Of a DNA stretch of 13,224 nt, positions 1 to 13,224 are shown piece by piece; position 1 is the first letter of the stretch, and every line of letters begins with the position of its first letter. The position numbers and the translations under genes were made by a program. The DNA lies in IMG/VR virus record IMGVR_UViG_641522650_000012; one strand, 5' to 3'. Under the pieces are notes generated by a model, which was not told the DNA's origin, made no database searches, and saw nothing but the letters and a program-made list of their open reading frames with translations. The DNA is from a virus. Taxonomy: Duplodnaviria; Heunggongvirae; Uroviricota; Caudoviricetes.

Positions 1-258
1 ATGCAAACCGTTATTTTTGGTCGTTCGGCTTGCCCTTACTGTGTGCGTGCAAAAGATCTGGCTGAGAAATTGAGCAATGAACGCGATGATTTTCAGTATC
101 AGTATGTAGATATTCGTGCGGAAGGGATCACTAAAGAAGATCTACAACAAAAGGCAGGTAAACCCGTAGAAACCGTGCCGCAGATTTTTGTCGATCAGCA
201 ACATATCGGCGGCTATACCGATTTTGCTGCATGGGTGAAAGAAAATCTGGACGCCTGA
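1..258 (+). CDS. grxA: Glutaredoxin 1
   Basis: 85-aa ORF with the CPYC active-site motif (SACPYCVRAK); near-identical to my recollection of E. coli GrxA. Followed by a hairpin terminator. Confidence 0.95.
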   Translation: MQTVIFGRSACPYCVRAKDLAEKLSNERDDFQYQYVDIRAEGITKEDLQQKAGKPVETVPQIFVDQQHIGGYTDFAAWVKENLDA

Positions 259-267
259 TCGTCTGAC

Positions 268-300
268 AAGCCCTCGCGTTGAGGGCTTTACTGATTTTTT
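268..300 (+). terminator. Rho-independent terminator downstream of grxA (overlaps the 3' end of convergent ybjM)
   Basis: Inverted repeat agccctc/gagggct (269-275 / 281-287) with a 5-nt loop, followed by a T-rich run ending in tttttt (295-300). Confidence 0.5.
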
Positions 301-665
301 CTGTGCTGTGGTTTAAACAAACTACTGATAAATAAGAAACACAGTGCCCCCAGCGCACACCAGAACACCGCGCTTAGTAACCATGCCAGCTCTTGCCAGA
401 ATGAGCGCGTCGGTGAAAAAAACAGCCGCATAATGAGCATTGAACAGGGTGCCGCCAGCATTGCGCCAAATAGAGGTTTCAGGACTTCTCTACGCTGTGA
501 AAAGAAACTGGCAACTGCTCCAGGAAGAATGAAAAACAGCAAGCCGATTTCAGGATGCCCGGCAGCCCGAAAAGCGCCTTTCATGTGCGTCGCCAGAAAA
601 AGGCACACCACAATGAAGAGGACAAAACAGCAGATTGCCCCCGCCCAACGTTGTTTATGTTTCAC
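288..665 (-). CDS. ybjM: Small inner-membrane protein (YbjM-like)
   Basis: 125-aa ORF, strongly hydrophobic with several predicted TM segments; size and position between grxA and ybjL match the E. coli K-12 synteny as I remember it. Confidence 0.75.
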   Translation of the reverse strand: MKHKQRWAGAICCFVLFIVVCLFLATHMKGAFRAAGHPEIGLLFFILPGAVASFFSQRREVLKPLFGAMLAAPCSMLIMRLFFSPTRSFWQELAWLLSAVFWCALGALCFLFISSLFKPQHRKNQ

Positions 666-934
666 TCGTTCCTCCTGACACTGCGTCTATCGAACACATT
701 TTTCGCCAGTGTGGCGTTCAGTAAGATAAAGCCGCTTCGCATTCCATGCTAATATAGGCCAACGCAATTCATATAGCCGTTGATACCTAATGTGATTACA
801 CTAGTAAAATATATTGTTACTTTACTATCGTTTAGGTGCGCTGAATGAATCTGCGCCCTGAATTCTGGTAAAAAACATTATCGTAAATTACCATTTCTTT
901 CAACAGCTTACTAGTAAACAAGAAGTTAGCCTCC

Positions 935-2620
935 GTGAATATAAACGTCGCCGAATTGTTAAATGGGAATTACATTCTGTTATTATTTGTGGTCCTCGCG
1001 CTTGGGCTATGTCTCGGAAAGTTACGACTTGGTTCGATCCAACTGGGTAATTCCATTGGCGTTTTAGTCGTATCGCTGTTATTAGGCCAACAACATTTCA
1101 GCATTAACACCGATGCGCTTAATCTTGGCTTTATGCTGTTTATTTTCTGCGTCGGGGTCGAAGCCGGACCGAACTTTTTTTCCATTTTTTTTCGCGATGG
1201 GAAAAATTACCTAATGTTAGCACTGGTGATGGTTGGCAGTGCGCTGGTGATCGCCTTAGGGTTAGGTAAGCTGTTTGGCTGGGATATTGGCCTGACGGCC
1301 GGTATGTTAGCAGGCTCTATGACGTCGACACCGGTTCTGGTCGGTGCTGGCGATACACTGCGTCATTCCGGCATGGAAAGCAGGCAGCTCTCACTGGCAC
1401 TGGATAATCTGAGCCTCGGGTATGCCTTAACCTATTTAATCGGTCTGGTGAGTTTGATTGTTGGTGCGCGTTACTTGCCGAAATTGCAGCATCAGGACTT
1501 ACAGACCAGCGCCCAGCAAATCGCCCGCGAACGTGGCCTGGACACTGATGCCAACCGTAAGGTTTATTTACCGGTGATCCGCGCCTATCGCGTCGGCCCG
1601 GAGCTGGTGGCCTGGACCGACGGCAAAAATCTGCGTGAACTGGGTATTTATCGACAAACCGGCTGCTACATTGAACGTATTCGACGTAACGGGATTCTGG
1701 CAAATCCAGACGGTGATGCCGTGCTACAAATGGGCGATGAAATAGCGTTGGTAGGCTATCCCGACGCCCATGCCCGACTCGATCCCAGCTTCCGTAACGG
1801 TAAAGAAGTTTTCGATCGTGACCTTCTCGACATGCGTATCGTCACTGAAGAAGTGGTCGTTAAAAACCATAACGCTGTAGGTAAACGTCTCGCACAACTG
1901 AAGTTGACCGATCACGGTTGCTTCCTTAACCGCGTCATTCGTAGCCAGATTGAGATGCCGATAGATGACAACGTCGTGCTTAACAAAGGTGACGTTTTAC
2001 AAGTCAGCGGTGATGCCCGTCGCGTAAAAACCATCGCCGATCGCATCGGCTTTATCTCGATTCACAGCCAGGTCACTGACCTGCTGGCATTTTGCGCCTT
2101 CTTTGTTATTGGGCTGATGATCGGGATGATCACCTTCCAGTTCAGCACATTCAGTTTCGGCATGGGGAACGCTGCCGGGTTGTTATTCGCCGGAATTATG
2201 CTGGGCTTTATGCGTGCTAACCACCCGACCTTCGGTTACATTCCGCAAGGTGCATTAAGCATGGTGAAAGAGTTCGGCTTGATGGTGTTTATGGCAGGCG
2301 TTGGTCTGAGCGCCGGTAGCGGTATTAATAACGGCCTGGGCGCGATTGGCGGTCAGATGTTGATTGCCGGATTAATTGTCAGTCTTGTGCCCGTGGTTAT
2401 CTGTTTCTTGTTCGGTGCTTATGTATTGCGAATGAACCGCGCACTGTTGTTCGGCGCAATGATGGGCGCACGCACCTGCGCGCCGGCAATGGAGATCATC
2501 AGTGATACAGCTCGCAGTAACATCCCTGCGCTGGGCTATGCGGGCACCTACGCAATCGCCAACGTCCTGCTGACGCTGGCAGGGACAATCATCGTCATGG
2601 TATGGCCAGGATTAGGATAA
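935..2620 (+). CDS. ybjL: Putative AAE-family transporter YbjL with two central RCK_C/TrkA_C-like domains
   Basis: 561-aa ORF, N-terminus [13 protein letters not shown] matches my recollection of YbjL; hydrophobic N- and C-terminal halves around a soluble middle. Start codon is GTG at 935. Confidence 0.9.
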
Positions 2621-2732
2621 AACTGAAGTTGCCCTGAAAATGAAATTTTTTTGCACAACCGCAGAACTTTTCCGCAGGGCATCAGTCTTAATTAGTGCCA
2701 CTGCTTTTCTTTGATGTCCCCATTTTGTGGAG

Positions 2733-2778
2733 CCCATCAACCCCGCCATTTCGGTTCAAGGTTGATGGGTTTTTTGTT
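2733..2778 (+). terminator. Intrinsic terminator-like hairpin in the ybjL/ogr intergenic region
   Basis: Perfect 10-bp inverted repeat cccatcaacc (2733-2742) / ggttgatggg (2760-2769), followed by tttttt (2770-2775). T-run only on the + strand, so it would stop rightward transcripts. Confidence 0.45.
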
Positions 2779-2855
2779 GTCTGAAATTTATGCCTTTTAA
2801 AATCATGATGTTAGAAGCACTGTTTTTTAACGATGGCGACAAAATGGCGGCAGCG

Positions 2856-3107
2856 TCAAAGAGAGAGCGCCACCTGTCCTGATTTCATTGGATGCGGCTG
2901 AACCGGATTTGACTCTTTTGGCGTTGCAATCGAACGAACAAAAGTTTCATGGGTAACAAAAGTATGGCTGCAGTTAATGTTCTGGCACTGGTTGTAACGC
3001 TCTTTGGTCAATGAAGATACCTGAAAACTGCTGCGAGTATGGGCGGCACTTCCACACAGTGGGCAAATCATCATTTTTCGAGTTCTCCCCATTTTTGCTA
3101 AATTCAC
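2856..3107 (-). CDS. ogr: Ogr/Delta-family zinc-finger late-gene transcriptional activator
   Basis: From the internal Met (start at 3071) the protein reads MICPLCGSAAH...KERYNQCQNINCSHTF, the C-x2-C...C-x4-C pattern of P2 Ogr (~72 aa). The ORF-track start at 3107 is probably an upstream over-extension. Confidence 0.85.
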   Translation of the reverse strand: MNLAKMGRTRKMMICPLCGSAAHTRSSFQVSSLTKERYNQCQNINCSHTFVTHETFVRSIATPKESNPVQPHPMKSGQVALSL

Positions 3108-3164
3108 AATAATGATACCGCATTATTCCATTTTGCAAGCTTAAAAGTTCTCCATTGCGAAGAA

Positions 3165-4265
3165 TCATTCCATTTCGAAATCATCAATCCTCACTTCAAG
3201 CTCCAGACTGGTCGTAAAACCGTTATCCGGGCTGACAGTATGCGTCAGAGTCGTAATGGTCCATTCCGCATCATCTATCGGCTGTTTAAAGCCACTGACC
3301 TTCACAGGCATTTCTGTGTAGAGATCTGCCCGCCCTTCCGCCAGTTGTAGCGAGAATGATGCAACGCCGCGTTGCAGGCGTTCCCACTGCATTTTCGCTG
3401 CCCGTTCGGCGTTGCTCCGGTTGGCATAAGTGCGATTAAGTACCAGCACGTTTTCATCCGTACCCACCAGGTAATCGCCCTGCTTCGCTTCCGGCTCTTT
3501 CTTCTGCTTCTTAGTCCTGCGCTTACGCTTCACCGTGGTGCTTTCTTTCTTCGCGGGTTCGCGGGTATGCAACCAGCTGGCAATGACGCCCGTGTAAGCT
3601 CCGCGATCTGCCAGGGTAAAGCGGTGACTGTCGCCGTCCTTGCGTGTGATAGTGATCACCGGTAGTGGTTTACCGCTGGCGCTTTTACCCTGCCCCTGCC
3701 GGATGAATAACAGATTGCCATTTTTCACCGACGCAATAGCACCGTACTGGCGCGCCAGCCGCATCAAAAAACTGCCGTCACTCTCATTAGTCTGGTCTAT
3801 ATGCTCCACGAGTTTATCCGACAAGTCTTCACCCAATGCCATCTTCAGTTTGTGCCGCGCAGCTATTTCCTTCACCACTTCCCCAACGGTGGTCTTGTGC
3901 CACGACTTTTCACGGCGGGTATTCAGCGTTTCACGAAAATCAGCACTTCGCGCCCGGATAGTCAGGCGATCCGGTGCGCCAGTGTGTTCAATCTCGTCCA
4001 CCGTGAATGCCCCTTTCGGGAAAAGCGGCTGTCCCTTCCAGCCCAGCGCCAGCGTAATGACAGCCCCACGGCGCGGCAGCACGATTTTTCCATCGGCGTC
4101 GTCCAGCTCCAGATCAAGCTGGTCCGCTTCAAAGCCCCGGTTATCCGTCAGCGTCAGCCCCATCAGGCGGTTGTCCAGCACAGTGGTGATATCCCTGCCT
4201 TCAATACTGATGCTGAATGCCGGAGTTTTGTTGCCTTTGTTAAGCAGTTCAGAGCTGAAATTCAC
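3165..4265 (-). CDS. P2 gpD-like tail protein (late control gene D family)
   Basis: 366-aa ORF in the canonical P2 position between U and ogr; basic KRKRRTKKQKK linker region. Start inferred as GTG at 4265, overlapping the U stop codon (GTGA). Confidence 0.8.
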   Translation of the reverse strand: MNFSSELLNKGNKTPAFSISIEGRDITTVLDNRLMGLTLTDNRGFEADQLDLELDDADGKIVLPRRGAVITLALGWKGQPLFPKGAFTVDEIEHTGAPDRLTIRARSADFRETLNTRREKSWHKTTVGEVVKEIAARHKLKMALGEDLSDKLVEHIDQTNESDGSFLMRLARQYGAIASVKNGNLLFIRQGQGKSASGKPLPVITITRKDGDSHRFTLADRGAYTGVIASWLHTREPAKKESTTVKRKRRTKKQKKEPEAKQGDYLVGTDENVLVLNRTYANRSNAERAAKMQWERLQRGVASFSLQLAEGRADLYTEMPVKVSGFKQPIDDAEWTITTLTHTVSPDNGFTTSLELEVRIDDFEME

Positions 4266-4747
4266 GACAGCAGCCCTCCCACCGTTTTACTGATATCGCT
4301 TAAGGCAGATGTTGCCGTTCCCTGCAGATTATTCAGTTGCGCACTGAGATCACCGAACATATCGGACAGGGATTCATCCACGCGTTTTAGCGACAGGGTG
4401 AACTCAATCCGGCGCGGCATACCGTCGCGGAAAAACTCCGTTTTAGTCTGATTCAGTCCCTCAATCACATACATGCCGTAAATCGTGCCGCTGCCTTCAA
4501 TCAGGGGCCATGCTTTTCCCTGTTCTGCCATCTGCTCCAGAGCCAGCAACGACAGCCTGCCGCCCGTTACCTCCGGCATAAGAACACCAGAAAGCGTCAG
4601 CATGTCGTTGTCCGGTCCCAGAAACTGCGTTGACGGGCGTCGGTTTACCCGGCTGTTTGCCGCATGTCGCCAGCTGCGTTGATACTGCAGCTCCTGATAC
4701 GGCACGGTGCGCAGCATAAACACGTACAATCCCAGCACCATCATCAT
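4262..4747 (-). CDS. P2 gpU-like tail protein
   Basis: 161-aa ORF starting MMMVLGLYVFMLRTVPYQ, matching my recollection of gpU; ATGA overlap with the tape-measure stop codon (4744-4747). Confidence 0.85.
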   Translation of the reverse strand: MMMVLGLYVFMLRTVPYQELQYQRSWRHAANSRVNRRPSTQFLGPDNDMLTLSGVLMPEVTGGRLSLLALEQMAEQGKAWPLIEGSGTIYGMYVIEGLNQTKTEFFRDGMPRRIEFTLSLKRVDESLSDMFGDLSAQLNNLQGTATSALSDISKTVGGLLS

Positions 4748-7700
4748 GCGTCGTATCCCCCCTGATCGCTGTAGTTACTCCTGGCTTTTGCCTTCAGCCT
4801 GCGTTCACGTTCATCAAGCTGGCGGGCCACCTCCCGCGCAATATCCTGCGCACTTTGTCCTGGCTGCGTTTGAATGATGATCTGCATCGGTGCCTCAATC
4901 CGTTGAACGGGCGGCACAGTGGCTGCACGACTCACCATCGCTTCACCGCCTTTCGCGGGAAGTGCCAAAGGGTGCAACGGTGGAAGCTCTGCTGGCGTAG
5001 CAGCAACACCCATCATTCCGGCAACAACGGCAGCCAGTGCAGCTGTATTTCTCCGGCTGGTCACATTTGCCGGGCCGTTAACAATTTCCGGCCCGTTTTC
5101 ACCGACGATGCCAAACTGCCCGCGCGGGATATACCCGCCGCTGTCATACATCCCCGCAAAGCCATATCCCCATGACGGAAAACCACCCGATGGCATCATC
5201 ACTTTACCGTCTGCATTCACCGTCGCAGGTTGCTGACGCGTCACGCTTTCCGGCAGTTTCGCCTTTGCGGCCTCTTTACTGACAATGCCAAGTTTCTCCA
5301 GCAACCAGGAAACGCCGGATTTCAGGGAGTCCAGCGGATGCATGACCATATTCAGCCCTTCCGCCAGAGCCTCCCCGAATCGTCGCCCCATTGCCGCTGC
5401 ACTCTGCAGTTCGGCAGAGGTCGACTTAACGGGCGTCAGCAGATCAGTAAACCAGCCCCACAGCGCCTGTACTTTGTCGCCAATCCACTGGAACACAGGC
5501 TTAAGCGGTTCGAACGCGGCACTGACAGGACCTGCCGCCGCTTTGAATCCTTCCACCACGCCACCGAGAAATGCGGTGATGGGCTGCCAGTATTTCCAGA
5601 CAACCAGCGCCACACCCGCCAGTGCAGTAACCACAAGACCTATCAGACTGAGCAGAGCACCTAACAGACCAGAGACGGCATACAGGGCAACGCGCAGCAT
5701 CGCCAGTGGACCGGATGCGAGCATACGCAGCACCGTGCCTGTGGCAGCCAGTCCGCCGCGTAGTACCGCCAGTGGATTCATAAACATCACAGCAACCGCA
5801 CGTAAACCGGATAATCCAGACCGCAAAAGTGCAACCGGCGCACCTGCTACAGTTTTCAGGACATTTCCCGTCAGTGATGCCGTGCGGCGCAAAGACGACA
5901 ACGGCGCAGTAAGTAAACCTGCAGCGTTGCCCGATGAAGCAAGCCCGCGTCGCAGCAGTGCCAGTGGTGCGCCAGCCAGCCAGGACAACGCGTTGCTGGT
6001 TCGGGTTACTGCTGCCGTAACGGAAGGTAACGTTTTGATACCCAGCACAGAGAATCCCAGACGGATGACTGCCAGCGGCCCCAGCACTGCAGCCAGCGCC
6101 ACCGCTAAGGTGCCGAGGCCCACGGTAACGGCAGCTACCACAGCGGCTACTTTCATCAGAGTGCCCGTCAGTTCCGGGTTAGCTTCCACCCAGCGACGCA
6201 ACGCCCCCGTGACGCTTTTCACCGTGTACAGAATATCCATCAGCGGCTGGCGCAGCGTTTCCCCCAGGCTGCTGAAGGTGTTCTGTGCTCCGGTTTTGAC
6301 CAGCAACCACTGAGCAGAAAGTGAATCCTTGTTGATGTCGGATTCTTTCTGCATGGAACCGAGCGCATCATTGCCCGCAGTCAGTTTTAACTGGCGCTGA
6401 AGTTCCGGCAGGTTGTTTGCCAGTTTCGCTGCGTCATCGCCAAACTCTTTACCAAACAACATGGTCATGGCAGACAGGCGCTTATCCTGTGGCAGCGCAT
6501 TCACCTTCTCCAGCACCCGCTGGATAGTTCCCATCGCATCCTTCGTCATCTGCTTTTCAATCACTTCTGGATTGAGTTTCAGCAGATTCATCCCTTCAAA
6601 GAAACTCTTGCTTTGCATGGTGGCAATGGACAATTCACGCACCATCGCGTTTGCTGCACTGGCTGCAACCTCAGGCGCAGCGCCGAGTGTCAGGAAGGTG
6701 GAACCCAGCGCCGCCGCTTTACGATAATCCAGACGGTCAGCCACACCGCCCAGGCGTTGCATGACATCAATGATGTCCGCCCCTTTCGACATGGCGTTAT
6801 CATCCAGATAGTTCAGCGCATCACCGAGCTGCTCAATATTGCGGGTAGGGATTTTGTAGAGCTGGGCGATTTTCCCCAGACTTTCTGACAGTTCATCCGC
6901 TGGCAGTTCAAAGGCTGTTGCCGCCTTTGCCGCCGTGCTGGCGAAGGCCAGCAGGTCACGTTTCTGGTCTTCCCAGCTGTCGTCAGGGTTTGCGACGTTC
7001 ATGCGCGCACCACCTTCAACCAGTGCGGCGAAGTCCACAGCACCGTTTTCCATCGGCAACTGTTCGCTGGCAGCCTTGATGGCACCCTGCATTTCGTAAA
7101 AACGCGCAGTGCGGTTGCCATTATCGTCACGCAGACCATTGACCTGCTTTGCCACACCTTTCATGGCATCTTCCATGCTGGTATAGCTTTTTACTGCCGC
7201 CATCACTGGTGCGCCCATTGCCAGCCCTGCAGCCGTGGTGGTGGCTCCGGCACCTGCAATACGATCCCTTACCTCAAGACGCCTGGCGTAAGCCCCCCGG
7301 GCGGCGTGCATTTTTCGCTGTTGCTCCCCGACACGTCGTAACCTCGCTTCCTGCTCAGAAAGCTGCCTGTTATAACGCATCGTTTCACGGGTAATGCGGG
7401 CCGTCGCACTGGCGCCATCATTAGCTGAAATACCAGCACGATAAAGTTCTGCACGCACAAGCGCCGTCTGCTGCTGCAGCTTTTTCTGGCGTTCTTCCAG
7501 GCGCTGAACAGCCAGCCGTTGACGGCCCAGAGCAACAACCTGACGTTGCGAAGGCGGCCCCATCGCTCCCAGTTCCTGACTGAGCAAATTTGCACGCTGG
7601 CGGGCATAGTTCAGCCTGTCGCCTAATTTCTGATTTTCTGCCTGCAGCTTTCGGAAGCTGTCCAGACTGCTCCCGGCCTGATCAAGCTGCTTTATTGCAT

Positions 7701-7821
7701 CGCGGGATTTTTTGACAGCAGCAGCCAGTTCTCTTGAACTGGCCTGCGCGGATCGAAATGGGCGGGTGAGTTTGTCAACCGCATTAAGAATCACCTGCAG
7801 ACGCAGGTTATTGTCACTCAT
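4744..7821 (-). CDS. Tail tape measure protein (P2 gpT family)
   Basis: 1025-aa ORF, coiled-coil-like N-terminal third, central hydrophobic/Gly-Ala-rich repeat tract, position between E/E' and U. Its start overlaps the E' stop codon. Confidence 0.9.
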   Translation of the reverse strand: MSDNNLRLQVILNAVDKLTRPFRSAQASSRELAAAVKKSRDAIKQLDQAGSSLDSFRKLQAENQKLGDRLNYARQRANLLSQELGAMGPPSQRQVVALGRQRLAVQRLEERQKKLQQQTALVRAELYRAGISANDGASATARITRETMRYNRQLSEQEARLRRVGEQQRKMHAARGAYARRLEVRDRIAGAGATTTAAGLAMGAPVMAAVKSYTSMEDAMKGVAKQVNGLRDDNGNRTARFYEMQGAIKAASEQLPMENGAVDFAALVEGGARMNVANPDDSWEDQKRDLLAFASTAAKAATAFELPADELSESLGKIAQLYKIPTRNIEQLGDALNYLDDNAMSKGADIIDVMQRLGGVADRLDYRKAAALGSTFLTLGAAPEVAASAANAMVRELSIATMQSKSFFEGMNLLKLNPEVIEKQMTKDAMGTIQRVLEKVNALPQDKRLSAMTMLFGKEFGDDAAKLANNLPELQRQLKLTAGNDALGSMQKESDINKDSLSAQWLLVKTGAQNTFSSLGETLRQPLMDILYTVKSVTGALRRWVEANPELTGTLMKVAAVVAAVTVGLGTLAVALAAVLGPLAVIRLGFSVLGIKTLPSVTAAVTRTSNALSWLAGAPLALLRRGLASSGNAAGLLTAPLSSLRRTASLTGNVLKTVAGAPVALLRSGLSGLRAVAVMFMNPLAVLRGGLAATGTVLRMLASGPLAMLRVALYAVSGLLGALLSLIGLVVTALAGVALVVWKYWQPITAFLGGVVEGFKAAAGPVSAAFEPLKPVFQWIGDKVQALWGWFTDLLTPVKSTSAELQSAAAMGRRFGEALAEGLNMVMHPLDSLKSGVSWLLEKLGIVSKEAAKAKLPESVTRQQPATVNADGKVMMPSGGFPSWGYGFAGMYDSGGYIPRGQFGIVGENGPEIVNGPANVTSRRNTAALAAVVAGMMGVAATPAELPPLHPLALPAKGGEAMVSRAATVPPVQRIEAPMQIIIQTQPGQSAQDIAREVARQLDERERRLKAKARSNYSDQGGYDA
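5686..5967 (-). repeat. Five imperfect ~63-bp (21-aa) in-frame tandem repeats inside the tape measure gene
   Basis: Protein motif P-L-A-x-L-R-x-G-L recurs at about aa 619, 640, 661, 682 and 705 of the tape measure protein. Confidence 0.6.
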
Positions 7822-8250
7822 GGCTGGCCCCGCTTCTCTGAATCGCTTTATCCCGCCATTCCAGCACTTCGGTCAGCGGCATAACGTCAGTAACGGATGG
7901 CGGCCAGTGAAAGATGGTGGCGATATCAGCCACCAGATCGTCAACCGTCAGGCTGTCGGTAAACCGGCAAGCACCGACTTCTTCAACAAAAAAGTGACAA
8001 CCTCAACCGACATGGCAGTGAGATCTGCCGGGTCCATCTCTGCAATTTCCTGTGCAGTCAGTGCCGGACTGGAGATGCGGGGGATCACGGTCATCATCGC
8101 GTTCACATCCATATCCATAATGGCCTGCAGGCGTGTGCCGCGCAGCGCACCGGACTGCGGTTTACGCAACACAATTTCGGTAATTTCTGTTTTACCGCGC
8201 ATGATGGGAGTATCCAGTTGAATGGTCTTTTCAGTCTGCTTATCGCTCAT
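7814..8250 (-). CDS. gpE+E' tail assembly chaperone made by programmed -1 ribosomal frameshift
   Basis: After a -1 slip at T-TTT-TTG the reading frame stays open for 58 codons to a TGA at 7816-7814, overlapping the T start codon (ATGAGTGA). Predicted fusion is about 146 aa, as for P2 E+E' and analogous to lambda G/GT. Confidence 0.6.
7948..8250 (-). CDS. P2 gpE-like tail assembly chaperone (zero-frame product)
   Basis: 100-aa ORF between FII and T with an SD-like AGGA upstream; contains the TTTTTTG slippery heptamer near its 3' end. Confidence 0.8.
   Translation of the reverse strand: MSDKQTEKTIQLDTPIMRGKTEITEIVLRKPQSGALRGTRLQAIMDMDVNAMMTVIPRISSPALTAQEIAEMDPADLTAMSVEVVTFLLKKSVLAGLPTA
7987..7993 (-). 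promoter_or_regulatory. Slippery heptamer T-TTT-TTG for the E/E' -1 frameshift
   Basis: The + strand reads caaaaaa at 7987-7993; on the coding strand this is the TTT-TTG codon pair of gpE preceded by T. Confidence 0.6.
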
Positions 8251-8304
8251 TTTGTTGTCCTGTAAATTAGGTTCTGGCGCGGCATTCCGCGCCGTTCAGA
8301 TACA

Positions 8305-8820
8305 TCAGAGGCCGAGGGCGTTGCGGTGCGCTTCCATCAGGTCCACACCGTCCACAATTTCCACCATGTTGATCAGGTCCACTTCATAGAGCACCTCACC
8401 ATTGATGGTCAGCTTCGCGTAGCTGTTGGTACTGGTCACTTTGGTAGTGTTGCTTTCGCCCGTCTTCCACTCGCCGGAATCTACTTCTTTGTGACGTCCA
8501 CGCACCACAAGCTCCACGGCCTGCACTTCCCCGGTATCATCACGCTGAATAGAGCCGGTAAAGCGCAGCTGGATGCCATCCACCGTGGCTTTGCCCATCT
8601 GCTTAAACAGCAGCAGTTCAGTACCACCAATGGAAAATTCTGTATCCAGTGCACTGTCATCCAGTCCCAGATCCACATCCACCGCTCCGGGCATACCGCC
8701 GCCGCGATACTTCTCATATTTGCGGGTGAATTTCGGCAGCGTCAGCGACTCAACGATCCCCTGCCAGTTGTTCCCGTCGTTAAACAGGTTCAGGTGTTTT
8801 AATTTGCGTGGTAAAGCCAT
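8305..8820 (-). CDS. Tail tube protein (P2 gpFII family)
   Basis: 171-aa ORF immediately downstream of the sheath gene; size and position match P2 FII. Confidence 0.85.
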   Translation of the reverse strand: MALPRKLKHLNLFNDGNNWQGIVESLTLPKFTRKYEKYRGGGMPGAVDVDLGLDDSALDTEFSIGGTELLLFKQMGKATVDGIQLRFTGSIQRDDTGEVQAVELVVRGRHKEVDSGEWKTGESNTTKVTSTNSYAKLTINGEVLYEVDLINMVEIVDGVDLMEAHRNALGL

Positions 8821-8829
8821 GTTGTCCCC

Positions 8830-10002
8830 TTACGCGCTGACCTGGCTGGAGAAATTCACCAGGTACTGATCGGTGATGCGCTGACGCAGCATCAGGTTTT
8901 CAAGTGGCGGCACTGGCGTGTAGTCGTAATCGATGGTGAGTTTCCCGGCTTTCAGCGTGTCTTTATCGTTCACCGACTCGTCCAGCCAGCAATCACCACC
9001 AATGAGATAGCCCTGACTGACCAGGCTACGCATTTTGGCGCGGATACCTTCGATAATGTCGCGGGCCAGCGACGGGTTCAGCGGTTTGTCCACCGCCCAC
9101 ATGTGCGCTTCTGCCATCGTGTCCATCAGCACCTGCGCCGTGCGGGTGTAGTTTTCGAAGGCAAAGAGCGGATCATCGCTCAGACAGCGGGAACCCCAGA
9201 AGCGGAAACCGTCTTTGCGGATAAGCGTGGTGATATCGTTCTGGTTAAGCAGACCTGCATCGGTTGCCGGGTCCTGCAGATCCCAGAACACATCAGCAGA
9301 AATTCCGGTGACACCGTTCACGCCCACGTTGGACAGGCTTTTGTGCCATCCGGTCTGCTCATCAATTTTAGCGCGCAGACCGAGCGCACGGGCGGTGGCA
9401 TAAGCCGTTGCTTCGGCATTCAGCACCGTGTCCCAGCCAGTAAAGTCGGGCCAGATCAGCATTCCTTCACGCTGACTGAAGTTTTCACGGTAAGTGATTG
9501 CTTCCTGCACCGTCTTGCAACCATACGCTGACAGGTAAGCAAATCCACGCAGGCTTTGCGCCACGCTCAGCAACTCAGTAGCTACCGCCTTCGTGTCGTG
9601 ACCTGGCACGCCGAGAATGCGCGGTTTAACGCCGAGCTGTGACTGGGCAGATAACAGGGCTTTCATACCTGTTTTTTTACCCTCGGCGGTCACTGCGCCA
9701 ATGATATTGGTTGTGGTTTCTTCTTCCGTTTCACCCTGCGGCACACGCACAACAACGGTCACGGGTTTTGCCTGGTCAGCGATGGCATCCAGCGAACGGG
9801 CCAGCGTGCCAGACTCACCCGCTTTACCGCTGGCGGTCAGCACATCAGTGATCAGCACAGGTTTATTAAGAGGAAACATTTTTGCATCGGCATCATCGCC
9901 CGTGCAGACCATACCCACGATGGCGGTGCTCACCGTGGTAATGGATCGGGTGCCTTCGTTGACTTCAACAACGCGCACCCCGTGGTGGTAATCCTGAGCC
10001 AT
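8830..10002 (-). CDS. Contractile tail sheath protein (P2 gpFI family)
   Basis: 390-aa ORF starting [14 protein letters not shown] with an AGGAGG SD 9 nt upstream; first gene of the FI-FII-E-T-U-D cluster. Confidence 0.9.
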
Positions 10003-10064
10003 AGTGGCGAACCTCCTGATTGGATTAGGCTTCGCCCTATGTTGAAGTGGGTAATGACTCCAAC

Positions 10065-10442
10065 TTATTGATAGTGTTTTATGTTCAGATAATGCCCGAT
10101 GACTTTGTCATGCAGCTCCACCGATTTTGAGAACGACAGCGACTTCCGTCCCAGCCGTGCCAGGTGCTGCCTCAGATTCAGGTTATGCCGCTCAATTCGC
10201 TGCGTATATCGCTTGCTGATTACGTGCAGCTTTCCCTTCAGGCGGGATTCATACAGTGGCCAGCCATCCGTCATCCATATCACCACGTCAAAGGGTGACA
10301 GCAAGCTCATAAGACGCCCCTGCGTCGCCATAGTGCGTTCACCGAATACGTGCGCAACAACCGTCTTCCGGAGCCTGTCATACGCGTAAAACAGCCAGCG
10401 CTGGCGCGATTTAGCCCCGACGTATCCCCACTGTTCGTCCAT
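10065..10442 (-). CDS. insB: IS1 InsB reading frame (expressed as InsAB' transposase by -1 frameshift)
   Basis: ORF-track fragment [22 protein letters not shown]... is the canonical InsB frame. The slippery motif AAAAAAC lies at 10505-10511 (+ strand gtttttt), so the real frame extends upstream of this Met. Confidence 0.85.
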
Positions 10443-10486
10443 TTCCGCGCAGACGATGACGTCACTGCCCGGCTGTATGCGCGAGG

Positions 10487-10762
10487 TTACCGACTGCGGC
10501 CTGAGTTTTTTAAGTGACGTAAAATCGTGTTGAGGCTAACGCCCATAATGCGTGCAGTTGCCCGGCATCCAACGCCATTCATGGCCATATCAATAATTTT
10601 CTGGTGCGTACCGGGTTGAGAAGCGGTGTAAGTGAACTGCAGTTGCCATGTTTTACGGCAGTGAGAGCAGAGATAGCGCTGATGTCCGGCAGTGCTTTTG
10701 CCGTTACGCACCACCCCGTCAGTAGCTGAACAGGAGGGACAGCTGATAGAAACAGAAGCCAC
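10487..10762 (-). CDS. insA: IS1 InsA (transposition inhibitor / N-terminal part of InsAB')
   Basis: 91-aa [27 protein letters not shown]..., the canonical IS1 InsA with its zinc-finger. Confidence 0.9.
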
Positions 10763-11110
10763 TGGAGCACCTCAAAAACACCATCATACACTAAATCAGT
10801 AAGTTGGCAGCATCACCGCTCTTTGTTATTAAGCCCACTAACTACCTATGCTAAAAATTATCCTTGTTCTGGGAAAAAGGGAGGTGTCTCTCACTGTACC
10901 TCCGATGGAAAATTTGTTTGCAATGATGGAACTATTAGTAAATTCAAAAAAATCTGTACTAAAAACTCACGATAACTTTTGCTTTTATATCTGCGTCTAA
11001 AATAAAAATGAGCCGCAGGTTAACCGCAAAAGTTACATGCTCACATAGCAAAAAGAATAGCCAACTTCATTATGGCTTCAGTGAGATGTATGGTCGTAGG
11101 ATTTCATACA

Positions 11111-11139
11111 TTGACACTGGTTATACATACAGTGAAAAT
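11111..11139 (+). promoter_or_regulatory. Candidate sigma70 promoter upstream of the integrase, now separated from it by IS4
   Basis: Perfect -35 TTGACA at 11111-11116, 17-bp spacer, -10-like GAAAAT at 11134-11139; predicted start site about 11146, just before the IS4 insertion point. Confidence 0.3.
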
Positions 11140-11142
11140 ACT

Positions 11143-11153
11143 CTCTACTGGAG
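11143..11153. repeat. IS4 target-site duplication, left copy (CTCTACTGGAG)
   Basis: 11-bp sequence immediately flanking the IS4 end, identical to 12580-12590. Confidence 0.9.
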
Positions 11154-12579
11154 TAATGCCAGTCAGTTAAGCAACTGACTGGCTCTTTTTCGGGGCTGTG
11201 GGGTATTTCCAGGGCCTCTCCTTTACCACTCTCGGGAAGGCCCTTCCCCTTCTCGTCGGTAATTTCACAAGTTGTCCCATACTTGCAAGATCGCGCATCA
11301 GCTCCGGTATACGTCCCGGTGAAGCGCCCTGCAATGTCATCAGCATTCTCATCACCATTCCGCATGATTCTGAGAAACTCAGTTGATTCGGCCAGTAACC
11401 TTTCAGATGTTCCGCCATTTTAATCATCTGATATCTCACCAGATTATAAGCCAGTAAGACACCCCACAGCTCTTGCTCCACAAGCTCCGGCTTTTTACTT
11501 CTCAGCGTCAGCCTGCTCAGTTGCATCGTCTGTTTTATCTCCCTGTATCCCAGTTCGATTTCCCAGCGATGACTGTACAGATCCGCCATTTCTCCTCCGG
11601 GGAAGCGCATGGCGTCCGTCATCGACGTCAGCAGATGGCAGACTTTTCCTTTGCGCGTCACGGTCAGCAGGCGGGCTGTCACTTCATTTCCCAGTCCCGG
11701 CCACTTTTTTCGTGCCTGCGGGCTGGTTTTCAGCTTCACCAGATGATCGCCTTTACCCAGTTTTCTGAGCTCTTCATATTGCGCTCCCTTTCTGAGAGGT
11801 ATCATCCAGTGGCGGTGTTCTCCCGCCAGGCTCCAGGCATTTAACAGTCCCAGTGAGTAATAACCTTTATCCATTAACGTCAGAGTGTTATCGCCGGTTT
11901 GTTCTATAAGTTGCTCAGCAAGCTCATTTTCGCTGTTCTTCATCGTGCCGAAGGCTGCAGCCGTCAGCAGATGGCTGGTCAGTTCCATCTGGCAGACCAT
12001 TTTGACCTGCGGGTAGAGCGCCGGGTTCCCGGCATGTGTCTGGCGGGGGAAGGCTGCATCGTTCTCTGGTGTATCCGGTGTGCGCCAGAACACACCATCG
12101 ATGGCCAGCAGGGTCAGGCCGCACCAGTGCGGATGCGGCGTGGCGTTATGCCAGAGCTGCGCTGTTTTCGTGAACACGCGGCGGACAGCCTCACTTCCCA
12201 GGCGCTGGCGGGCCTGAATAACGGCACTGGGGGCAACGAAGGGGCGATTGCCCGGCAGCATGATGTCCAGGCGATTCACAATCTGGTGAAGAGGTTCTTT
12301 ACGCTCAAGCGCCATGCCAACAATACACCAGACCATCATTTCGAGGGGAAGACGGCGCTTGCGTAGCGTTACAGTACCTGATTCGGCAAGGCAACGAGAG
12401 ATGAGTTCGGGGTCGAGGTAATCCCCCAGAGAAGTCAGTGGGTTACGCAGAGAATCGTAACGGGATACCAGATCAAGAGCCTGTCCAATGTGCATAAAAA
12501 AATCCGGAAACAAGTGAGCGTTTCCGGATTCTTACACAGCCACTGGATCGGTCAACTGATCCTTAACTGATCGGCATTA
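11154..12579 (-). mobile_element. IS4 insertion sequence, complete 1426 bp
   Basis: Ends taatgccagtcagttaag... (11154-) and ...cttaactgatcggcatta (-12579); single transposase ORF; exactly the 1426 bp I remember for IS4; perfect 11-bp direct repeats flank it. Confidence 0.95.
11167..12513 (-). CDS. insG: IS4 transposase (DDE family)
   Basis: ORF-track protein matches my recollection of E. coli IS4 transposase from [16 protein letters not shown]...; the likely true start is that Met (12495), giving 442 aa; the track's 448 aa includes a 6-aa upstream extension. Confidence 0.9.
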
Positions 12580-12590
12580 CTCTACTGGAG
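12580..12590. repeat. IS4 target-site duplication, right copy (CTCTACTGGAG)
   Basis: Identical to 11143-11153; contains the GGAG of the integrase Shine-Dalgarno sequence. Confidence 0.9.
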
Positions 12591-12600
12591 GGCATTTTTT

Positions 12601-13224
12601 ATGGCAGTACGAAAACTCACCACTGGGAAATGGCTTTGCGAATGTTACCCCGCCGGACGAAGTGGGCGTCGTGTGCGTAAACAATTCGCCACCAAAGGCG
12701 AAGCACTGGCTTTTGAGCGCCACACGATGGAAGAAACCGAAGCAAAGCCCTGGCTGGGTGAATCAGTGAATCGTCGAACACTGAAAGACGTGGTTGAGCT
12801 ATGGTTCAAACTACATGGTAAATCTCTGACAGCTGGGCAGCATGTCTATGACAAATTGCTGTTGATGGTTGACGCTCTGGGCAATCCTCTTGCAACCGAT
12901 CTCACCTCTAAAATGTTTGCCCACTATCGAGATAAACACCTGACAGGCGAGATCTACTTCAGCGAGAAATGGAAGAAAGGAGCAAGCCCGGTCACCATTA
13001 ACCTGGAGCAAAGCTATCTAAGTAGTGTTTTTAGCGAACTATCCCGTCTGGGCGAATGGTCGTATCCGAACCCACTGGAGAACATGCGAAAATTCACCAT
13101 CGCAGAAAAAGAGATGGCATGGCTTACCCATGAGCAGATTGTTGAATTGCTGGCTGATTGCAAACGTCAGGACCCAATTCTGGCACTGGTAGTTAAGATA
13201 TGCTTAAGCACAGGCGCACGCTAG
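12601..13224 (+). CDS. int: Tyrosine integrase of the P2/186 family (3'-truncated by the window end)
   Basis: N-terminus MAVRKLTTGKWLCECYPAGRSGRRVRKQFATKGEALAFE and the segment WLTHEQIVELLADC...VVKICLSTGAR resemble my recollection of P2 and 186 Int; GGAGG SD 9 nt upstream of the ATG. The catalytic C-terminal domain lies outside the window. Confidence 0.85.
   Translation: MAVRKLTTGKWLCECYPAGRSGRRVRKQFATKGEALAFERHTMEETEAKPWLGESVNRRTLKDVVELWFKLHGKSLTAGQHVYDKLLLMVDALGNPLATDLTSKMFAHYRDKHLTGEIYFSEKWKKGASPVTINLEQSYLSSVFSELSRLGEWSYPNPLENMRKFTIAEKEMAWLTHEQIVELLADCKRQDPILALVVKICLSTGAR

Follow-up and report, generated by a model that had tools for sequence, protein, structure and literature searches.

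A simple insertion of IS1 is recognized by a direct duplication of its target, 8-10 bp and usually 9 bp in length. Two other processes, namely intramolecular transposition of IS1 and recombination between two insertion sequences, both leave an element that is devoid of direct repeats (PMC9330008). The small-RNA gene rybB is listed among the insertion sites of P2-like prophages (PMC3032704), and TGT-N12-ACA is the published consensus of the P2 late promoters (PMC3931495). In the record of P2, the activator site of promoter pF extends from -97 to -69 relative to the ATG of the tail-sheath gene FI, with the +1 at -26 to -24. In that of 186, the B site of promoter pJ lies at -92 to -73 from the sheath ATG, with the +1 at -24. 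The 186 record also describes the promoter of the activator gene B (pB) as directly repressed by CI.

The DNA analyzed here, referred to as the window, is a stretch of 13,224 nucleotides. It is identical to Shigella boydii CP001063.1 over all 13,224 bases (100%), and CP001063.1 is the genome of S. boydii CDC 3083-94 (PMC2974192). We find that the window very probably holds the scar of one IS1-associated deletion in a prophage of the 186/P2 family, inserted at the 3′ end of rybB in this strain and its relatives. The features on which this reading is built are collected in Table 1.

Table 1. Features of the window in order of position; L001 is the 46-kb reference that carries the intact prophage of E. 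coli UPEC-245U.
Feature	Position	Strand	Basis or remark
rybB small-RNA gene	2700..2778	plus	Rfam RF00110, 105 bits, full-length model
Attachment core, rybB 3′ end, ATGGGTTTTTTGTT	2765-2778		ogr-side prophage end; 14-mer recurs after int in intact L001
ogr/B-type late-gene activator, 72 aa	2856..3074	minus	Pfam Ogr_Delta, 6.7e-22; annotated as 72 aa in L001
ogr upstream region	3075-3164	minus	
gpD homologue (tail/baseplate hub, late control D)	3165..4265	minus	Pfam Phage_GPD; L001 annotation
gpU homologue, tail protein	4262..4747	minus	Pfam Phage_P2_GpU, 2.6e-44
gpT homologue, tape-measure protein, 1025 aa	4744..7821	minus	Pfam PhageMin_Tail
GpE′ frameshift extension ORF, 39 aa	7814..7933	minus	maps to L001 CDS 12325-12444; PF06528
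gpE homologue, tail assembly chaperone	7948..8250	minus	Pfam Phage_TAC_7
gpFII homologue, tail tube	8305..8820	minus	Pfam Phage_tube, 8.8e-60
gpFI homologue, tail sheath, 390 aa	8830..10002	minus	Pfam Phage_sheath_1, Phage_sheath_1C, Gp18_domIII_N
Native leader and partial core promoter, 47 bp	10003..10049	minus	L001 14514-14560, identical
IS1, complete, 768 bp	10050..10817	minus	ORFs, inverted repeats, 97-98% identity to E. coli IS1A/IS1B copies
insB, 125 aa	10442-10065	minus	PF03400 recorded for identical gene
insA, 91 aa	10762-10487	minus	PF03811 and PF12759 recorded for identical gene
pIRL-like promoter, CTGCCA-16-TATGAT	10810-10783	minus	sigma-70 consensus scan
Prophage DNA of the cI-int interval	10818..11153	plus	L001 40028-40363, 99.1%
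Small ORF of the YdcA family, 5′-truncated by 34 nt, 50 aa as called	10823-10975	plus	PF27300 YdcA
Promoter-like TTGACA-17-GAAAAT upstream of int	11111-11139	plus	promoter scan
IS4, 1426 bp	11154..12579	minus	Pfam Nterm_IS4, DDE_Tnp_1
IS4 transposase	12513-11167	minus	
Integrase N-terminal fragment, 207 aa	12601..13224	plus	Pfam Int_N

The retained prophage genes form the tail block typical of the Peduoviridae (P2/186-like phages), i.e., FI-FII-E-E′-T-U-D followed by ogr, which adjoins the attachment site. The predicted Ogr protein, a zinc-finger activator, is 54% identical to B of phage 186. The tail block is 94% identical to that of Klebsiella P2-like phages over 7.3 kb, and an identical gpT tape-measure protein is present in many assemblies. 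The ORF list and Pfam reveal no genes for baseplate, fibre, head, lysis or replication in the window. That is, it does not have the full complement of genes for head, baseplate, fibre, lysis, replication and immunity that marks a functional prophage of this family; 37 such coding sequences lie in the interval that was deleted, as described below. Both ends of the prophage are still in place around the deletion.

An intact counterpart is found in E. coli UPEC-245U (NZ_CP049845.1), which matches the sheath region of the window at 99.9% and the 336-bp far flank of IS1 at 99.1%. This strain carries an intact prophage of 34 kb between ybjL and rcdA, that is, at the same ybjL/rybB-rcdA locus as the window, and the 46-kb reference L001 was taken from it. 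Window positions 1-10049 correspond to L001 4512-14560 (99.89%, with 11 mismatches and no gaps), and BLAST aligns positions 12580-13222 with L001 40353-40995. The two flanks of IS1 thus map to L001 14560 and 40028, and the 25,467 bp in between (14561-40027) are replaced by IS1. The break points of the BLAST matches coincide to the base with the ends of IS1, as in the scar of an IS-mediated deletion. The lost segment begins 48 nt before the sheath gene and ends within the YdcA-family ORF between cI and int, of which it takes the first 34 nt, so that the far flank of IS1 is prophage DNA of the cI-int interval, not host DNA. Its size is given on the assumption that the unseen S. boydii ancestor had the gene content of the E. 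coli reference prophage.

The deleted interval comprises 37 annotated coding sequences in L001. These include a Hin/Cin-type invertase with its invertible fibre segment, and the tail fibre with its chaperones. Also lost are the baseplate genes I, J, W and V; a DUF5677 cargo gene; S and R; the spanins, LysA, lysozyme and holin; X, L, M, N, O, P and Q; an HNH/AAA cargo pair; a DinI-like gene; the replication endonuclease; Dam; and small early genes, Fil, CII, the gene at the position of Apl, and CI. The CI of the intact relative is 32% identical to that of 186 (E 7e-38), and by its sequence the phage is assigned to the 186 branch, being closer to 186 than to P2.

The element at the scar belongs to the IS1 family on two grounds. 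It has the expected length of about 768 bp, with imperfect terminal repeats of about 23 bp (GGTGATGCTGCCAACTTACTGAT/GGTAATGACTCCAACTTATTGAT), and it encodes insA (zinc ribbon and helix-turn-helix) followed by insB′ (DDE), with the A6C frameshift motif (AAAAAAC, minus strand, approximately 10505-10511) between insA and insB. Read directly from the sequence, IRR is GGTAATGACTCCAACTTATTGAT at 10050, facing FI, and IRL, at 10817, is the reverse complement of GGTGATGCTGCCAACTTACTGAT. At the junctions, IRR is joined to CACTTCAACATAGGG and IRL to GCTCTTTGTTATTAAGC. The flanking 9-mers, GTTGAAGTG and GCTCTTTGT, are identical at 2 of 9 positions; no direct repeat was found at the ends of the element for any k from 5 to 14, and the 20-bp flanks have no word of five or more nucleotides in common. 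The target duplication that characterizes a simple insertion is therefore absent.

These results bear on an earlier note on this DNA, which had placed IS1 47 bp upstream of the tail-sheath gene, in the orientation of the tail operon and between unrelated 9-mers with no target duplication. Its description proved accurate: positions 10003-10049 amount to exactly 47 bp up to the FI ATG; insA, insB and FI (10002-8830) are all on the minus strand; and the 2/9 match, together with the search over k = 5-14, leaves no 8-9 bp repeat that could have been overlooked. The note had also argued that this was no simple insertion, but an IS1-associated deletion or recombination, and had proposed aligning the flanks with an intact prophage at the same locus. 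The alignment bears this out, since 25,467 bp separate the flanks in the UPEC-245U prophage and the deleted interval can be delimited as L001 14561-40027. The claim that the genes normally upstream of FI are absent holds as well, none being present in the window. The named neighbour, Z/fun, was mistaken; in L001 this position is occupied by the DNA invertase.

The scar is shared by independent assemblies. Both 40-nt junctions occur in CP026762.1, CP026795.1, CP049281.1, AMKE01000099.1, AMKC01000167.1 and PTES01000002.1, while CP026866.1 and CP026797.1 have, by BLAST, identical break points and an IS1 that is 100% identical. In all, at least eight other assemblies have both IS1 junctions, and several of these are complete chromosomes. 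Within this Shigella clade, 10-11 kb differ at only 1-8 positions. The cut-down YdcA product of 50 aa is indexed in 137 blocks of the collection, mostly from draft contigs of 10-20 kb, and the examples read begin at the IS1 boundary. Because both junctions are common to at least eight other assemblies, we conclude that the scar is a single ancestral event, fixed in one Shigella clade, and not an artefact of assembly.

Neither junction is present in any of 5,426 complete E. coli genomes. When positions 9400-11400 were compared with the same 5,426 genomes by megablast, only separate matches to IS1 and IS4 were obtained, none of which covered 80% or more of the query. One match, in PEC422, covered 55%; it is in fact an unrelated IS1 inside int. 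The 32-nt pattern of the left junction has no exact match in the GTDB species-representative genomes, in which each species is represented by one genome. Likewise, among the genomes searched there is no relative with the junction but without IS1, a finding that would have spoken against the earlier note. The tape-measure ORF is split in CP026795.1, PTES01000002.1 and others, which might be taken for pseudogenization. All of these splits are single-C deletions, and the gene is intact in the near-identical CP026762.1; they are probably sequencing errors and were not counted as decay.

The same prophage has met IS1 in sister lineages too. In CP026766.1, a different isoform, 91% identical to the IS1 of the window, has its IRR abutting the 9-mer CAATTGAGT at L001 21704. 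S. boydii Sb227 (CP000036.1), CP162080.1 and CP026731.1 carry the isoform of CP026766.1, with no differences over the 628 bp available. In these three, CAATTGAGT is found at the IRL side (L001 21696) and IRR is joined to L001 16150, so that 5.55 kb of baseplate and fibre genes are gone. The CP026766.1 locus ends 140 bp inside the element; judging from the 9-mer it shares with Sb227, its IS1 would be a simple insertion. The pattern of CP026766.1 and Sb227 is as expected of a simple insertion with a 9-bp duplication, followed by a deletion from one IS1 end. These lineages show that IS1 has eroded the same prophage repeatedly and independently across Shigella.

To locate the late promoter of the tail operon we relied on distances from the sheath ATG, as the MAFFT alignment of the P2 pF region with the region upstream of the sheath gene in the intact relative is unreliable outside the coding start. 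In the intact relative, this ATG is preceded by a perfect TGT-N12-ACA dyad, TGTGTGAATAACGACACA, at -94 to -77. In the 46-kb reference as a whole, the motif is found 10 times, against 11.6 matches expected, i.e., not above chance. Four of the 10 dyads nevertheless fall within or border on the three intergenic regions expected to carry late promoters, namely those preceding FI and V and the one between the divergent O and P; because these intervals total only about 360 bp, the placement of the four is not random. By analogy with the known late promoters, and with the dyad centre taken at about -56, the +1 would fall near -29 from the ATG and the -10 element at about -41 to -36, both within the retained leader.

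In the window, IS1 starts at -48 from the FI ATG, and so IS1 sequence stands where the activator dyad and the -35 region would be. The 110 nt upstream of FI contain no TGT-N12-ACA, even with the second half-site relaxed to [AC]CA; that is, the dyad of an Ogr/B-dependent late promoter of the P2/186 type, centred about 55 nt upstream of the start, is missing. The AGGAGG ribosome-binding site of FI is kept within 10003-10049. The earlier note had predicted that the Ogr dyad would lie beyond the retained 47 bp. The dyad of the intact relative, at -94 to -77 as in P2 pF and 186 pJ, agrees with this prediction, and no site of the Ogr type was found inside the 47 bp. Ogr-dependent transcription of FI-FII-E-T-U-D has thus presumably been lost.

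Might IS1 itself supply a promoter? IS1 ends can form fusion promoters, given a well-placed -10 element (Prentki et al. 1986, as summarized in PMC9330008). Here, the best -35 candidate in the IS1 end, TTGGAG, agrees at 3 of 6 positions, with no suitable -10 element at a spacing of 16-18 nt. A well-placed -10 is therefore not apparent, while a weak fusion promoter below the threshold of the scan is conceivable. The consensus scan detected no sigma-70-like site across the IRR/FI junction, the pIRL-like site being the only match on the minus strand. No intrinsic terminator is predicted on this strand from insB to FI, and read-through is hence physically possible. The IS1 promoter pIRL is, however, a weak one under repression by InsA, and the element has a strong polar effect on transcription that reads through it, so little expression is to be expected. 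What transcription of the tail block remains would be at most a weak read-through from the autorepressed insA promoter.

The other end of the remnant has suffered further inactivation. IS4 entered by simple insertion and is flanked by an 11-bp duplication, CTCTACTGGAG, at 11143-11153 and 12580-12590, which is also seen as overlapping BLAST matches to L001. It stands between the promoter-like sequence at 11111-11139 and the ATG of int (12601). In addition, compared with the intact int of L001 (350 aa), codon 208 is changed from TGG to the stop codon TAG. Among the assemblies read, IS4 is found only in CP001063.1 and two sequencing runs, which indicates that it arrived after the IS1 event. The TGG-to-TAG change is also found in relatives that do not have IS4. 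Because immunity, replication, head, baseplate, fibre and lysis genes are all missing, and int is both stopped and cut from its promoter by IS4, the remnant is a fixed, non-inducible and non-excisable prophage fragment.

How the scar formed is deduced from its product alone. IS1 would first have inserted at one of the two present junctions; in an intramolecular, replicative transposition, its other end would then have been joined to a distant target on the same molecule. Such an adjacent deletion would take with it the intervening DNA and one copy of the original 9-bp duplication. An intermediate, i.e., IS1 at one junction only and with its 9-bp duplication, was not found among the genomes searched. 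The same product, one IS1 between unrelated 9-mers, is also the outcome of recombination (PMC9330008), here a RecA-dependent exchange between two co-oriented copies of IS1 that had inserted independently at L001 14552-14560 and 40028-40036, each with its 9-bp duplication. We consider this quite possible, if somewhat short of probable. Shigella genomes contain very many copies of IS1, and the independent acquisition of another IS1 by the same prophage in sister lineages makes a double insertion plausible. Yet no genome was found with two IS1 in the prophage, or with IS1 at only one of the two sites, and recombination calls for two insertions and an exchange, as compared with one insertion and one transposition. 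The single-insertion and deleted states of the sister lineages, moreover, share one fixed IS1 end, as expected of adjacent deletion, which is no proof. On grounds of parsimony, we lean slightly towards adjacent deletion. There remains the reading in which the prophage is really intact and the junction reflects an assembly artefact, or a plain IS1 insertion with a missed duplication. As a high-copy repeat, IS1 is a frequent site of collapses and breaks in assemblies, and many draft contigs end exactly at this IS1. Against this, the same left and right junctions recur in no fewer than eight other assemblies, among them contigs 148 kb to 2 Mb long that run through IS1, and the flanks, which are 25.5 kb apart in the intact phage, have no repeat of 5 to 14 nt; this reading is exceedingly improbable.

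Accepting a deletion, one may ask whether what it left behind has a function. The tail block might have been domesticated as a sheath-tube-tape-measure module that selection maintains and that IS1 drives, through insA read-through or a hybrid promoter at IRR. The window and most sister assemblies have ogr and all seven tail ORFs at full length, IS1 is co-oriented with them, no minus-strand terminator is predicted from insB to FI, and FI has kept its ribosome-binding site. However, no more than 11 differences in 10,049 positions separate the tail block from that of the intact E. coli prophage, and the integrity of its ORFs therefore reflects recency, not selection. Furthermore, assembly of a contractile tail requires baseplate and fibre genes, and the deletion took all of them; there is no consensus-like promoter at the IS1/FI junction; and pIRL is weak and InsA-repressed in an element that is polar. 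Domestication is thus very unlikely. We give similarly little credence to a second idea, which is drawn from gene content only: with cI lost, and ogr/B kept with its own upstream region, the remnant could provide a constitutive late activator in trans, along with weakly IS1-driven sheath and tube proteins. If so, the activator could act on the late promoters of other P2-like prophages, P4-like satellites and incoming phages. A search for a CI operator common to the pR/pL region and the D-ogr interval of the intact phage showed k-mer sharing at a level not above shuffled expectation (p approximately 0.09-0.12), and the scan revealed no sigma-70 consensus promoter upstream of ogr.

The locus, read as a deletion scar, is a clean and base-resolved example of how insertion sequences dismantle Shigella prophages, and it matters little beyond annotation. 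It can be annotated as a non-inducible remnant, with promoterless tail genes and an inactivated int. In Shigella, one prophage is seen with IS1 in three states, namely a putative simple insertion, a deletion of 5.5 kb and one of 25.5 kb; as a series, these could provide a small natural time course of IS1-driven genome reduction and a lineage marker.

Compared with known systems, the scar is of the same kind as those left by IS1 adjacent deletion or inter-IS1 recombination (Turlan and Chandler 1995, as summarized in PMC9330008): a single IS1, no repeats, and flanks that are not contiguous. Only the setting differs, in that it lies inside a prophage from which about 25.5 kb were removed. The prophage resembles, by description, Rybb*W, Rybb*B and Rybb*Cr of E. 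coli W, B and Crooks (PMC3032704), which occupy the same site at the 3′ end of rybB, belong to the same family and are defective; the Shigella remnant is set apart by its own IS1 deletion, IS4 insertion and int nonsense mutation. With 186 (Eganvirus) and P2 it shares the gene order FI-FII-E-E′-T-U-D-ogr, and the intact relative has its dyad at the same distance from the ATG. The cI, cII, fil and DinI-like genes of this relative are of the 186 type. In contrast, the sequence upstream of the sheath gene cannot be aligned with P2 or 186 beyond the geometry of the dyad, the upstream neighbour in the intact relative is a DNA invertase with an invertible fibre segment, and the promoter in the window has no upstream half. 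R-type pyocins and other tailocins likewise lack head genes while having sheath, tube, tape-measure, U and D genes of the P2 type. However, they keep baseplate, fibre, chaperone, lysis and regulatory genes, and a working promoter, whereas the remnant has none of these, which makes the likeness superficial; in the window, no baseplate, tail-fibre or lysis genes stand beside those for sheath and tube, as they do in R-type tailocins. IS1 deletions, the 11-bp duplication of IS4, the Ogr/B dyad, the rybB site and IS-driven decay in Shigella are all textbook items. The finding is thus an ordinary case of a process already known, IS-driven prophage decay in Shigella, and not a new system.

The full-length small-RNA gene rybB (105 bits) lies between ybjL on one side and ogr, the late-gene activator, on the other. 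Its last 14 nt, ATGGGTTTTTTGTT, recur as a second copy downstream of int in the intact prophage. It follows from this repeat that the integration target of the phage is the 3′ end of rybB, which insertion rebuilds.

At int itself, an IS4 element separates the start codon from a strong promoter-like site, TTGACA-17-GAAAAT (11111-11139, + strand). Among the assemblies examined, this insertion is found only in CP001063.1, with two sequencing runs also carrying it; we conclude, therefore, that it is younger than the IS1 deletion. The integrase is also shortened to 207 amino acids by a premature stop, which is common to relatives without IS4.

The interval missing from the window includes both cargo sites of the intact prophage, which sit at the usual P2 moron positions. 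The HNH endonuclease and AAA ATPase pair may constitute a defence module. The deletion also removed the first 34 nt of a YdcA-family small ORF; gene callers still report the truncated ORF, from an internal start, as a 50-aa protein.

Coordinates of the features in the window and related loci
Feature	Locus	Position	Strand	Remark
rybB	window	2700-2778	+	small-RNA gene
Attachment core	window	2765-2778	+	ATGGGTTTTTTGTT, end of rybB
D-ogr intergenic region	window	3075-3164	-	inverted repeat AATAATG-N6-CATTATT
YdcA-family small ORF	window	10823-10975	+	63 aa in intact phage
IS4 with duplication	window	11143-12590		11-bp duplication CTCTACTGGAG
int premature stop	window	13222-13224		TGG-to-TAG, codon 208
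DUF5677 cargo gene	L001 (intact prophage)	20696-21715		between V and S
HNH endonuclease + AAA ATPase	L001	30571-33085		after portal gene
Second IS1 isoform	L027 (CP000036.1, S. boydii Sb227)	7597-8364
Second IS1 isoform	L005 (CP026766.1)	1-628

In other Shigella lineages, the same prophage was struck by an IS1 of another isoform, which shares 91% identity with the window's copy. Two states are seen there, one in which the 9-mer CAATTGAGT adjoins IRR, and another in which CAATTGAGT is found at IRL together with a 5.55-kb loss of baseplate and fibre genes. Side by side, the two states resemble successive steps of an IS1 adjacent deletion.

The tape-measure gene, equivalent to window 4744-7821, is broken by single-C deletions in several complete assemblies (loci L009, L010, L026, L028 and L031). 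It is unbroken in CP026762.1, whose chromosome is almost equal in length to that of CP026795.1. These deletions are probably homopolymer sequencing errors, and not pseudogenisation.

Lastly, the inverted repeat between D and ogr overlaps a -10-like hexamer, TATCAT, with TTGCAA upstream of it, and may be an operator controlling ogr. The corresponding promoter of the related coliphage 186 is pB, for which repression by CI is annotated; the cI gene is gone from the window, having been deleted.
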